Assembly: GCF_003334255.1 (NCBI RefSeq)
Contig: NZ_QOWU01000013.1
Reading direction: 5' to 3' (one strand)
DNA: 64,000 nucleotides
DNA from: Escherichia coli
Lineage (GTDB): Bacteria > Pseudomonadota > Gammaproteobacteria > Enterobacterales > Enterobacteriaceae
The translations under genes were made by a program, and so were the position numbers. This document shows positions 1,387 through 38,889 of this stretch, in pieces; the first letter of the stretch is position 1, and every line of letters starts with the position of its first letter. The notes under the pieces are model-generated. The model did not search any database. It was not told where the DNA came from and saw nothing but the letters and a program-made list of their open reading frames with translations.

Positions 1387-3303
1387 TTATTTTTTGTCTT
1401 TGACTTCTTCAAATTCAGCGTCGACAACATCGTCATCTTTCGCGTTGTTTGCAGAAGCATCAGCACCGGCAGTCTGCTGCTGGGCATGTTGCTGCTGGGC
1501 GATTTCCATCAGTTTCTGGGAAACCTGTGCCAGTTCCTGCATTTTCGCTTCGATAGCGGCTTTGTCTTCACCTTTCAGAGCAGTTTCCAGTGCAGTCAGC
1601 GCAGACTCGATAGCAGTTTTGTCGTCAGCCGGCAGTTTGTCGCCTGCTTCTTCAACCTGCTTACGGGTGCTGTGCAGCAGATGGTCGCCCTGGTTGCGAG
1701 TCTGTACCAGCTCTTCAAACTTACGGTCAGCTTCGGCGTTAGCTTCTGCGTCGCGTACCATTTTCTGGATTTCATCTTCGTTCAGACCAGAAGAAGCCTT
1801 GATGGTGATCTTCTGCTCTTTACCGCTGTTTTTATCTTTCGCGGAAACGTGCAGGATACCGTCAGCATCGATATCGAAGGTAACTTCGATCTGCGGCATG
1901 CCGCGCGGTGCCGGGTTGATACCATCTAGGTTGAACTGACCCAGAGATTTGTTATCAGCCGCACGTTTACGTTCACCCTGCAGCACATGGATGGTTACCG
2001 CAGACTGGTTGTCTTCAGCGGTAGAGAACACCTGGCTGTGCTTGGTCGGGATAGTGGTGTTTTTCGCGATCAGCGTCGTCATCACACCGCCCATGGTTTC
2101 GATACCCAGAGACAGCGGGGTAACGTCCAGCAGCAGTACGTCTTTTACGTCACCAGTCAGAACACCACCCTGAACAGCAGCACCGATTGCTACAGCTTCG
2201 TCCGGGTTAACGTCTTTACGCGGCTCTTTACCAAAGAACTCAGCAACTTTCTTCTGAACCATTGGCATACGAGTCTGACCACCAACGAGGATAACGTCGT
2301 CGATATCAGATACGGACAGGCCAGCGTCCTGCAGTGCAACTTTCAGCGGCTCAATGGAACGGTTTACCAGATCTTCAACCAGGCTTTCCAGTTTCGCACG
2401 AGTCACTTTGATGTTCATGTGTTTCGGACCGGTCGCGTCTGCAGTGATGTATGGCAGGTTAACGTCGGTCTGCTGAGCGGAAGACAGTTCGATTTTCGCT
2501 TTTTCTGCCGCTTCTTTCAGGCGCTGCATTGCCAGCGGATCGTTGCGCAGGTCAATGCCCTGATCTTTCTTGAATTCTTCAACCAGATAGTTGATCAGAC
2601 GGCTGTCGAAGTCTTCACCCCCCAGGTGGGTATCACCGTTGGTTGCCAGAACTTCGAAGGTTTTTTCGCCGTCAACTTCGTCGATTTCGATAATAGAAAT
2701 ATCGAAAGTACCACCACCCAGGTCATAAACCGCGATAGTACGGTTGCCAGTGCCTTTGTCCAGACCGTAAGCCAGCGCAGCTGCGGTCGGTTCGTTGATG
2801 ATACGTTTTACTTCCAGACCAGCGATACGGCCTGCGTCTTTGGTTGCCTGACGCTGAGCATCGTTAAAGTATGCCGGTACGGTGATAACAGCTTCAGTTA
2901 CCGGTTCACCCAGGTAATCTTCAGCGGTTTTCTTCATTTTTTTCAGCACTTCAGCAGAAATCTGCGGCGGTGCCATTTTCTGGCCTTTAACTTCGACCCA
3001 TGCGTCGCCGTTATCAGCAGCAATAATTTTGAACGGCATGATGGAAACATCACGCTGTACTTCTTCGTCCTGGAAGCGGCGACCAATCAGGCGTTTAATC
3101 GCAAACAGAGTGTTTTGCGGGTTCGTCACTGCCTGACGTTTAGCCGGCTGACCAACTAGAGTTTCACCATCCTGGGTATAGGCAATGATAGAAGGCGTGG
3201 TGCGATCGCCTTCGGCGTTCTCCAGCACGCGAGGAGTGGTGCCATCCATAATCGCTACACAAGAGTTGGTAGTACCCAGGTCGATACCAATTATTTTACC
3301 CAT
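1387..3303 (-). CDS. dnaK: Chaperone DnaK (Hsp70), 638 aa
   Basis: Full-length [20 protein letters not shown] and IDLGGGTFD Hsp70 signatures; 88-bp spacer to dnaJ, typical dnaKJ operon. Confidence 0.98.
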
Positions 3304-4084: not shown

Positions 4085-4109
4085 CGCCAGAATATAGAAG
4101 CCACAAAAA

Positions 4110-4823
4110 ATGAATGTTAATTACCTGAATGATTCAGATCTGGATTTTCTTCAGCATTGTAGTGAGGAACAGTTGGCAAATTTCGCCCGATTGCTCACCC
4201 ATAATGAAAAAGGCAAAACTCGCCTCTCCAGCGTACTGATGCGCAACGAACTGTTTAAATCGATGGAAGGGCATCCCGAGCAACATCGCCGCAACTGGCA
4301 GCTGATTGCCGGAGAATTACAGCATTTTGGTGGCGATAGTATCGCCAACAAACTGCGCGGACACGGTAAATTGTATCGGGCCATTTTGCTCGATGTTTCA
4401 AAGCGATTGAAGCTGAAAGCCGACAAAGAGATGTCTACGTTTGAAATTGAGCAACAGTTACTGGAACAATTTCTGCGTAATACCTGGAAGAAAATGGACG
4501 AGGAACATAAGCAGGAGTTTCTGCACGCGGTCGATGCCAGGGTGAATGAGCTGGAAGAGCTGCTGCCGCTGCTGATGAAAGACAAATTATTGGCAAAAGG
4601 TGTGTCGCATTTGCTTTCCAGCCAACTGACCCGCATTTTACGCACCCACGCAGCAATGAGCGTACTTGGGCATGGTTTGCTGCGCGGCGCGGGGCTGGGA
4701 GGCCCTGTAGGTGCGGCACTAAATGGGGTTAAAGCGGTCAGCGGCAGCGCCTATCGCGTGACGATTCCAGCCGTACTGCAAATCGCCTGCCTGCGCCGGA
4801 TGGTTAGCGCCACTCAGGTCTGA
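4110..4823 (+). CDS. yaaW: UPF0174-family protein YaaW, 237 aa
   Basis: Full-length ORF at the expected locus; carries a long antisense ORF (see findings). Confidence 0.85.
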   Translation: MNVNYLNDSDLDFLQHCSEEQLANFARLLTHNEKGKTRLSSVLMRNELFKSMEGHPEQHRRNWQLIAGELQHFGGDSIANKLRGHGKLYRAILLDVSKRLKLKADKEMSTFEIEQQLLEQFLRNTWKKMDEEHKQEFLHAVDARVNELEELLPLLMKDKLLAKGVSHLLSSQLTRILRTHAAMSVLGHGLLRGAGLGGPVGAALNGVKAVSGSAYRVTIPAVLQIACLRRMVSATQV

Positions 4824-10445: not shown

Positions 10446-11732
10446 TTACTGATGATTCATCATCAATTTACGCAACGCAGCAAAATCGGCGGGCAGATTA
10501 TGTGAAAGCAAGGGTAAATCAGCACGTTCTGCCAGCTCTTTTGGCAGATCCAACGTTTCACCGAGAATCGCTTCCACGCTCTCTTTAAATTTCGCCGGAT
10601 GCGCGGTGCCGAGGAACAAGCCATATTCGCCTGGATTCAACTGATCACGCAGCGCACGATAAGCTACGGCAGCGTGCGGCTCCGAAGTGTAGCCCAGTTC
10701 TTTTAACTCACGCATTGTCTGTTGCGTGGTTTCATCATCCACGGCTGCATAACCCAGCTCTTTCAGTTGCCAGATTTTGCGGCGGAACAACTCTTCCACA
10801 CGCGGCCAGTTGTTCGGCTGACTCACGTCCATCGCGTTGGATAACGTCGCCTGAGTCGCTTTGGGTGACCACTGACCGTCGTGCAGGAAACGTGGCACGG
10901 TATCGTTCACGTTGGTCGCAGCAATAAAACGTTTCACCGGCAGACCGAGTGACTTCGCCAGCAGACCCGCCGTCAAATCGCCGAAGTTTCCGCTTGGCAC
11001 CGAGACAACCAGCTGGTTGCGCGTCTCCTGCGGCAGCTGCGCAACAGCTTCAAAGTAGTAGCAAATCTGCGCCAGCAAACGGCTGATGTTAATCGAGTTA
11101 GCCGAGTTTAACCCTAGCGCCACTTTCAGTTCTTCATCATCAAACGCCTGCTTCACCAGCGCCTGACAGGCATCGAAATCGCCGTCGATGGCAACAGTTT
11201 CGATATTGCCGCCCAATGTACAGAACAGTTTTTCTTGCAGTGGACTGATTTTGCCTCGTGGATAGAGGATAACCACTTTCACATTCGGTAAACCGTAGAA
11301 AGCATGAGCCACTGCCGCTCCGGTATCACCGGAGGTCGCGGTCAGAATGGTCACTGGCTTATCACCCGCAATATGGGTCAGCATTTGTGCCATAAAGCGA
11401 CCGCCGAAATCTTTAAATGCCAGCGTTGGCCCGTGGAACAATTCCAGACAACCGACATCGCTTTCAACATTGGCGACCGGAGCCGGGAAGGCAAACGCCG
11501 CGCGCACGCGCTCTTCCAGGATTTCCTGTGGGATTTCATCACCAATAAACGCCGAGAGGATCTTCGCACTGCGGGTGACAAAATCCAGCTTCAGCATCTC
11601 ATCAATTTCAGTCAGGCTGAATTCCGGCAGGTCGTGCGGAAAAAACAGCCCCTGATTTTTGCCCAACCCCTGGGTTACGGCTTGCGCAAAGCTGACCTGC
11701 TCGTTGTGATCTTTCAGATTGTAGAGTTTCAT
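10446..11732 (-). CDS. thrC: Threonine synthase, 428 aa
   Basis: Full-length ORF (MKLYNLKDHNEQVSFAQAV...); last gene of thrLABC. Confidence 0.97.
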   Translation of the reverse strand: MKLYNLKDHNEQVSFAQAVTQGLGKNQGLFFPHDLPEFSLTEIDEMLKLDFVTRSAKILSAFIGDEIPQEILEERVRAAFAFPAPVANVESDVGCLELFHGPTLAFKDFGGRFMAQMLTHIAGDKPVTILTATSGDTGAAVAHAFYGLPNVKVVILYPRGKISPLQEKLFCTLGGNIETVAIDGDFDACQALVKQAFDDEELKVALGLNSANSINISRLLAQICYYFEAVAQLPQETRNQLVVSVPSGNFGDLTAGLLAKSLGLPVKRFIAATNVNDTVPRFLHDGQWSPKATQATLSNAMDVSQPNNWPRVEELFRRKIWQLKELGYAAVDDETTQQTMRELKELGYTSEPHAAVAYRALRDQLNPGEYGLFLGTAHPAKFKESVEAILGETLDLPKELAERADLPLLSHNLPADFAALRKLMMNHQ

Positions 11733-36291: not shown

Positions 36292-37536
<1,245 letters not shown>

Positions 37537-37566
37537 TCAAATTTAAATGATCAGATCAGTATACCG

Positions 37567-38889
37567 TTATTCGCTGATACGGCGATAGACAGTTGGTGTG
37601 CTTTCCGGTGCTTTATCGGCAAGTTTAATTGCCGCTTTCACCGCTTTCGCCGCTTCCTGCCAGTTGTTTTCGTCTTTCGCGTGGATAACCGCCAGCGGAC
37701 GCTGACCGTCTACCTGGTCGCCCAGACGCGCCATATCAGTAAAGCCGACGCTGTAATCGATGGTGTCAGATGCCTGACGGCGTCCGCCGCCCATTGCAAC
37801 CACTGCCATCCCCAGCGCGCGGGTATCCATTTCACTGACAAAACCTTCGGTATCAGCATAGACTGCTTTCGTCAGCATCGCTGTCGGCAGATACTTCGCG
37901 TAGTTCTCAACGAAGTCGGTCGGGCCTTTTTGTGCCGCTACCATACGACCAAAGACTTCTGCCGCTTTACCGTTGTCCAGCACCGCCTGCAATTTCGCGC
38001 GCGCTTCGGCGTCATCTTTCGCCAGTTTGCCGGAGATCAGCATCTCCACGCACAGCGCCATCGTGACATCAAACAGACGCGGGTTACGATATTCACCCGT
38101 CAGGAACTGCACCGCTTCACGAACTTCAACCGCGTTACCTGCACTGGAGGCCAGTACCTGATTCATGTCGGTGAGCAGCGCGGTGGTGCGCACGCCAGCG
38201 CCGTTAGCCACGCCAACAATCGCTTCGGCAAGGGCTTCAGAGAGTTCGTAGGTCGGCATAAACGCGCCGCTACCCACTTTCACGTCCATCACCAGCGCGT
38301 CCAGACCTTCCGCAAGTTTCTTCGCCAGAATAGAGGCGGTGATCAGCGGGATGGAGTCCACGGTTGCGGTAATATCACGGGTCGCGTAGAAACGTTTATC
38401 AGCCGGAGCCAGTGAACTGGTCTGACCGATAATCGCCACGCCGACGTCTTTAATAATTTCGCGGAAACGGTTGTCATCCGGGAAAATGTCGAAGCCAGGG
38501 ATGGATTCCAGTTTGTCGAGCGTACCGCCAGTATGACCGAGGCCGCGACCAGAGATCATCGGAATATAGCCGCCGCAGGCTGCGACCATCGGCCCCAACA
38601 TCAGCGAAGTCACATCGCCGACGCCACCGGTGGAGTGTTTATCAACAATCGGGCCATTCAGATGCAGGCTTTTCCAGTCGAGAACGGTTCCTGAATCTCG
38701 CATCGCCATGGTCAGCGAGACACGCTCAGGCATTGTCATATCGTGGAAGAAAATGGTCATCGCGAGGGCGGCAATCTGCCCTTCGGAGATAGTGTTGTCG
38801 CGAATACCGTTGATAAAGAAACGAATTTCTTCATCGCTCAGCGCATGACCATCACGTTTTTTACGAATAATTTCTTGTGCGAGAAACAA
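37567..38889 (-). CDS. deoA: Thymidine phosphorylase DeoA, 440 aa
   Basis: [29 protein letters not shown]...; TTG start codon in this sequence. Confidence 0.95.

Follow-up and report, generated by a model that had tools for sequence, protein, structure and literature searches.

The htgA/mbiA-yaaW pair is cited among the few 'verified' long antisense overlapping pairs in Escherichia coli and is a textbook case of overprinting. Delaye et al. 2008 propose an overprinting origin of htgA in the Escherichia/Shigella lineage and state that the existence of htgA 'remains controversial'. In the codon phase of this overlap, conservation is inherited from the mother gene (Mir & Schober 2014). In this study, we analysed the minus-strand open reading frame (ORF) embedded in yaaW on a 64,000-nt stretch of E. 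coli DNA (assembly GCF_003334255.1, contig NZ_QOWU01000013.1), hereafter called the window. The results showed that this ORF is the historically annotated htgA/htpY/mbiA frame, a finding already known, and that it is probably a 'shadow' frame, which would follow from the YaaW sequence and the codon phase and would not be kept by selection for a protein.

The window was compared with K-12 MG1655 and with other E. coli genomes. There were zero differences between the two yaaW genes, and K-12 mbiA (b0012, 'uncharacterized protein MbiA', 10830..11315) mapped exactly to window positions 4151..4636. Because yaaW of the window is identical to that of K-12, where mbiA equals 4151-4636, the locus is that of mbiA/htgA/htpY (b0012, UniProt P28697) over yaaW (b0011); the two share locus and sequence, and only the chosen start differs. 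The first-pass annotation of the window had given the coordinates and length of the ORF and its full embedding in yaaW, which were confirmed by the ORF listing and the minus-strand translation, and had assigned it to htgA/mbiA, which was confirmed by the mapping of K-12 mbiA, the yaaW identity and the naming of the htgA/mbiA-yaaW pair in the literature. Its start held in part: a GTG ORF of 164 aa exists, but annotated mbiA begins at ATG 4636 and has 161 aa. Its wording 'same-phase-shifted' needs correction, the third codon positions of the two strands lying opposite each other; this phase is named '123/213' in Delaye 2008 and '-2' in Mir & Schober 2014.

The antisense frame has been read from three starts, namely CTG 4741 (4739-4741), which is the start of the original 591-nt htgA/htpY described in 1993; GTG 4645, which gives the longest ORF under the ATG/GTG/TTG rule; and ATG 4636, which is that of the current K-12 mbiA. 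According to Delaye 2008, htgA starts at yaaW nucleotides 632 and 527. The 1.4-kb region around the locus matched E. coli strain 720632 at 100% identity and was present as a single copy in 5,425/5,426 complete E. coli genomes. No mbiA feature was annotated by the NCBI Prokaryotic Genome Annotation Pipeline (PGAP) in the PGAP-annotated E. coli genomes examined. The MreB-interacting MbiA of Caulobacter is an unrelated protein sharing the name.

We then generated 20,000 synonymous-codon shuffles of yaaW, leaving the encoded protein and the codon usage of the gene unchanged. The results showed that an antisense ORF of at least 164 aa in the same phase occurred in 19.8% of the shuffles (P = 0.198), the longest ORF averaging 123 aa, and that the remaining two antisense phases almost never contained such an ORF. 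The length of the ORF is not beyond chance expectation from the yaaW protein and codon usage. An antisense stop in this phase needs NNT-CAN or NNY-TAN on the sense strand, that is, a His/Gln codon after a T-ending codon or a Tyr codon after a pyrimidine-ending codon. YaaW has few of these stop-permitting contexts, and long open antisense frames therefore arise easily. Annotated genes were also placed on the window by remapping with blastn, because the coordinates of strain 720632 fit only about the first 23 kb, and 53 genes were mapped. Eleven antisense ORFs of at least 164 aa were found inside 10 of them. The first-pass annotation had held that antisense ORFs this long are not rare in GC-rich genes and that several exist in the window, which agrees with this count, and its caution that sequence alone cannot show expression was right, such ORFs being common in the window.

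Selection on the antisense frame was assessed with regard to this phase: because third positions coincide, most yaaW-synonymous changes are silent in both frames, so the antisense frame inherits the look of purifying selection. The informative class consists of changes that are synonymous in yaaW and non-synonymous in the antisense frame. We counted these by parsimony in 16 Escherichia sequences and compared them with the expectation from mutational opportunity with the observed transition bias. The results showed that 30/125 yaaW-synonymous changes altered the antisense protein, against 18.6% expected (omega 1.38, 95% confidence interval 0.88-2.10). In a control clade with a broken frame, the count was 63/248 against 21% expected (omega 1.28, 0.94-1.71), and the two clades did not differ (Fisher P = 0.80). 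Among 12 distinct E. coli sequences, 4/23 such changes were counted against 18.6% expected (omega about 0.9). An omega of 0.5 or below was rejected in Escherichia (P <= 8e-6). Antisense-only changes accumulate at the neutral rate, and no purifying selection on the antisense frame beyond the constraint of the mother gene was detected in the 16 Escherichia sequences.

An allele census was performed by megablast on the 5,426 complete E. coli genomes with 55-nt queries centred on each variant. Megablast finds no 28-base exact word in such a query unless the allele matches, and the two alleles at position 4151 summed to 5,383 genomes, which validates the method. Across 13 E. coli sequences, the frame was 148, 164 or 174 aa long when counted from GTG. 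The 4151T allele, which carries the TGA stop of K-12, was present in 1,501/5,426 genomes (28%), and the 4151C allele, in which TGG is read through for 10 codons to a TAA, in 3,882/5,426 (72%); the 10 residues gained in this form are WRKSRSESFR. A third allele, 4199T, turns Trp149 into a stop; it was seen in strain CREC-544, was carried by 248/5,426 genomes (4.6%) and arose independently in E. albertii. Conservation of start and stop across the carrying clade, as expected of a functional overlapping gene, was not found. K-12 and the window both carry the minority stop allele, and the K-12 annotation of mbiA is unrepresentative of most E. coli.

A scan of one genome per species yielded 17 yaaW loci. 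The antisense frame was open in E. coli and in two divergent (cryptic) Escherichia lineages, and it was restricted to Escherichia; in E. albertii it was truncated by a premature stop. Citrobacter, Salmonella, Kluyvera, Pseudescherichia and related genomes had about 2-7 in-frame stops between the GTG equivalent and the K-12 stop, nearly all of them TGA at NNT-CAN. One TAA, at 4325-4327, was common to all seven non-Escherichia orthologues of equal length (714 nt). It was lost in Escherichia via Tyr73->Phe of YaaW (TAC->TTT), a step needed for the open frame, and the other stops were removed through yaaW-synonymous third-position changes. Neutral drift acting on a predisposed frame would likewise produce a restriction to Escherichia. 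This analysis reproduced three features of htgA described by Delaye 2008, namely its phase, its confinement to Escherichia and the truncation of the CFT073 type.

The composition of the antisense ORF was compared with that of the 53 annotated genes of the window. Its codon-usage log-likelihood (gene-like versus antisense-phase-like) was -0.54 bits/codon, whereas all 53 genes scored at least +0.15, and its codon adaptation index was 0.54, against 0.567 for the lowest annotated window gene. The predicted product contains 23.2% Ser and 9.8% Cys, against averages of 5.7% and 1.25% for the window proteins and a highest Cys content of 5.6% in any annotated protein; the other same-phase antisense ORFs had 17.7% Ser and 4.3% Cys. 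Both codon usage and composition are typical of a non-coding antisense frame. Predicted Shine-Dalgarno pairing was -3.9 kcal/mol for ATG 4636, -0.9 for GTG 4645 and -2.4 for CTG 4741, against a gene median of -6.1; as a sign of a non-coding frame this is only suggestive, yaaW itself having -0.2 kcal/mol. Upstream of the ORF, the promoter scan of the minus strand gave no sigma-70 consensus match, and the terminator scan found no useful terminator downstream on that strand. No Rfam family matched at the locus (one sub-threshold match lay outside it), and the antisense protein had no match in NCBIfam or PADLOC.

A search of 5.8 billion proteins for homologues of the antisense protein returned only the E. 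coli cluster of 174 aa (P0001) and two weaker matches outside E. coli. The latter (P0002 and P0003) were rejected as independent open antisense frames, being frameshifted assemblies that split an E. coli-like yaaW. An AlphaFold single-sequence model had a mean pLDDT (predicted local distance difference test) of 28 and contained no secondary structure, which is weak evidence for an orphan. In these searches and this model, the antisense frame had no independent homologues, domains or fold, as expected of a shadow ORF.

Taken as a course of events, the frame opened in Escherichia through Tyr73->Phe of YaaW together with a small number of third-position changes that were synonymous in yaaW. It has drifted from then on, with a polymorphic stop position, a segregating premature stop and neutral antisense-only changes. 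Any transcription or translation of the minus strand would be low-level pervasive expression, and the phenotypes once ascribed to htgA would reflect effects of yaaW or of antisense RNA and not a selected MbiA protein. The coordinates of the locus are collected in Table 1.

Table 1. Features of the yaaW locus and of the antisense frame, in window coordinates.
Feature	Position	Strand	Remarks
yaaW coding sequence, 'mother' gene	4110..4823	+	237 aa; from the ORF list and the RefSeq coding sequence
Antisense ORF as first noted	4151..4645	-	164 aa, from GTG to the TGA at 4151-4153
K-12 RefSeq annotation of mbiA (b0012)	4151..4636	-	ATG start, 161 aa
Full stop-to-stop frame	4151..4750	-	199 sense codons; upstream in-frame TAG at 4751-4753
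Polymorphic stop codon	4151..4153	-	4151T = TGA (K-12-type stop); 4151C = TGG (Trp)
Downstream stop for 4151C alleles	4121-4123	-	TAA, 10 codons further; 174 aa from GTG
Trp149 codon TGG	4199..4201	-	yaaW-synonymous 4199 C>T gives TGA, ORF cut to 148 aa
Lys107 codon AAA	4325..4327	-	TAA in 7/7 non-Escherichia 714-nt orthologues
Trp8 codon TGG	4622..4624	-	yaaW-synonymous transition 4622 C>T (Ser->Ser in YaaW) gives a stop; natural 'knock-out' site
yaaI, DUF2541, 134 aa	3680..4084	+	25 nt upstream of yaaW, co-directional

A number of points weigh against a mere shadow frame. An abstract by Fellner and colleagues reportedly describes promoter-gfp activity and a mapped transcription start for htgA of enterohaemorrhagic E. 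coli, and it is said to report biofilm and metabolite phenotypes of a strand-specific htgA stop-codon mutant. The phenotype of Fellner et al. 2014 is cited as verified in later papers. Northern blots, protein labelling and promoter mapping for htgA are attributed to Missiakas et al. 1993 by Delaye 2008, which adds that the sigma-32 induction of htgA was not confirmed later. According to the literature, a promoter lying within htgA/yaaW showed activity in vitro, and ExcludonFinder (PMC12288877) lists a divergent excludon formed by yaaW and mbiA in at least half of the analysed E. coli RNA sequencing (RNA-seq) samples. From this listing, the minus strand is probably transcribed.

Sequence variation supplied further points of this kind. 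The first ~148 codons were uninterrupted in 13/13 E. coli sequences; this intactness is weak evidence, because only six yaaW-synonymous single-base changes create an antisense stop at all, two of them transitions (4199T and 4622T) and four transversions (at 4271, 4361, 4523 and 4607). The 4622T allele (Trp8->stop) was found in 0/5,426 complete genomes by allele-specific megablast; as it is the single remaining transition site, its absence says little, and we rejected it as evidence for selection. The parsimony test on 16 sequences could miss weak or very recent selection. Finally, the ratio of synonymous density in the overlap to that in the 3' remainder of yaaW was 0.80 in Escherichia and 1.08 in the controls (Fisher P = 0.11, with 16 sequences and saturated controls). 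This dip of about 20% is a weak trend and not significant, and the excess synonymous constraint over the overlap that the first-pass annotation had raised was thus not found at a significant level.

The first-pass annotation had also pointed to minus-strand ribosome footprints and retapamulin initiation, and we consulted the tables of Zehentner et al. 2020, a paper that argues for many antisense genes. There the ORF (EDL933 10736-11362) was present only in the table of BLAST hits (S12). It was absent from the 864 antisense ORFs transcribed in 12 EDL933 conditions (S4), from the 216 EDL933 ORFs with ribosome footprints (S6) and from the BL21 ORFs with a retapamulin start-site signal (S11). These tables are threshold-based and cover few growth conditions, which tempers their weight; they speak against strong expression but leave room for a weaker one.

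The alternative that fares best is that htgA/mbiA is a genuine, very young protein gene of Escherichia/Shigella born by overprinting, which we regard as unlikely. Such a gene would be driven by a promoter at the 3' end of yaaW, either within it or shortly past it, would start at ATG 4636 or GTG 4645 and would encode a Ser/Cys-rich product of ~145-171 aa with a conditional role in stress or biofilm physiology. Its main support is the strand-specific mutant phenotype (Fellner 2014, as reported by citing papers). Every E. coli sequence examined has the frame open, as have the two cryptic Escherichia lineages; the open frame is restricted to this clade, and its opening required a specific change of YaaW, Tyr73->Phe. 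The same reading draws on the continued annotation of mbiA in K-12 RefSeq, on the absence of 4622T from the 5,426 genomes and on the non-significant 20% synonymous dip. De novo genes, moreover, often have no homologues, an odd composition and little constraint. Delaye 2008 further reports that yaaW evolves more slowly where htgA overlaps it; the protein-level or extra synonymous constraint claimed there for htgA/yaaW was not reproduced in this analysis, and in this phase the mother gene produces a spurious signal of purifying selection (Mir & Schober 2014). An antisense omega of ~1.4, the same as in clades with a broken frame, argues against a protein under selection, as do the trimorphic C-terminus and the truncating allele, which reaches 4.6% and recurs in E. 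albertii. The length expected by chance, the codon usage below that of every annotated window gene, the weak Shine-Dalgarno pairing, the missing predicted fold and the absence from the published RNA-seq, footprint and retapamulin lists point the same way.

A non-coding antisense transcript could also modulate yaaW or yaaI by transcriptional interference or by RNase III cleavage of the paired transcripts as an 'excludon', with the ORF being incidental; we hold this to be less probable still. The divergent-excludon listing and the promoter activity in vitro speak for such an RNA, with which the missing protein-level constraint is compatible. Against it, the minus strand around the ORF had no consensus promoter or terminator and no Rfam match, and yaaW showed no significant excess of synonymous constraint, which would be expected if the RNA acted through its structure or sequence. 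The 864 differentially transcribed antisense ORFs of EDL933 do not include this one, and the ExcludonFinder call depends on the mbiA annotation in K-12. Equally improbable is that mbiA yields a de novo protein that is truly translated and confined to Escherichia, or an antisense RNA that is translated, with an expression that might be coupled to the jukA-family defence gene yaaW and might modulate it; such a protein would be too young for detectable selection, and its dispensable C-terminus would still vary.

The neutral frame, the K-12-atypical stop and the segregating truncation weaken htgA/mbiA as a positive control for the detection of overlapping genes, and the results support the non-annotation of mbiA by PGAP. 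If mbiA were a true gene, its product would offer a rare view of a de novo protein at a stage too early for selection to be detected. For annotation practice, the JukA-likeness of YaaW and its misnaming as MsyB matter more than the antisense ORF.

We therefore also describe the sense gene. Pfam searches identified DUF3944 at YaaW residues 5-39 (E = 1.4e-14) and Ubiq_cyt_C_chap (Cbp3-like) at residues 58-220 (E = 1.3e-15), and YaaW matched the PADLOC model of JukA over its full length (residues 1-234, E = 1.3e-57). Judged from these matches, YaaW belongs to the JukA family. According to a preprint (10.1101/2022.09.17.508391), the Juk system against jumbo phages uses JukA as its sensor, DUF2541 genes are putative operon partners of jukA, and Juk protects against nucleus-forming jumbo phages, for which this preprint is the only source known to us. 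JukA and YaaW have the architecture of DUF3944 plus a Cbp3-like chaperone in common, and yaaI is a DUF2541 gene like the reported jukA partner; in contrast, the partner in the Escherichia jukA operon assayed there is an Xre regulator and not DUF2541. It is likely that yaaI is the operon partner of the JukA-family gene yaaW. The E. coli core genome may hold a Juk-like yaaI-yaaW pair next to dnaK.

In ~5,400 complete E. coli genomes, PGAP names yaaW 'msyB: acidic protein MsyB', because the NCBIfam equivalog NF007593 (PRK10236) bears the MsyB name. True MsyB (K-12 b1051, 124 aa) matches NF008544, and its comparison with YaaW by BLASTP revealed no similarity (E = 2.6). The near-nil Shine-Dalgarno pairing of yaaW and its 25-nt spacer after yaaI (4085-4109) hint at coupled or leader-dependent translation. 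In NZ_CP180600.1, yaaW is split by IS1, and PGAP names the fragments 'DUF3944 domain-containing protein' and 'ubiquinol-cytochrome C chaperone family protein'. A single genome of the 5,426 contained no yaaW match.

The gene order around the locus is dnaJ-dnaK / yaaI-yaaW-satP / mog-tal. Identity of the window with strain 720632 extends over roughly its first 23 kb only; beyond yjjX/trpR (~23,880-24,360), indels shift the coordinates and yjjV is 95% identical. This drop in identity points to a boundary of recombination or mosaicism or to an origin of the window in another strain.

Compared with other proposed overprinting cases, the ORF resembles the nog1/citC, laoB, ano, asa and pop/ompA candidates of O157:H7, which are likewise embedded antisense and taxonomically restricted. 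Those candidates were chosen from RNA-seq and ribosome-profiling signals, whereas the yaaW antisense ORF is absent from the 864/216 lists of the same group. The window itself holds antisense ORFs longer than that of yaaW in dnaK (1387-3303; 390 aa, and another of 181 aa), deoB (37165-38388 region; 270 aa), yjjW (248 aa, 86% of the host gene), deoA (244 aa) and serB (206 aa). Like that of yaaW, these presumed shadow ORFs would have a length explained by the codon and amino-acid usage of the mother gene, a composition rich in Ser and Cys, and neither homologues nor constraint of their own. What sets the yaaW antisense ORF apart from them is its annotation history and the published claims of a phenotype.

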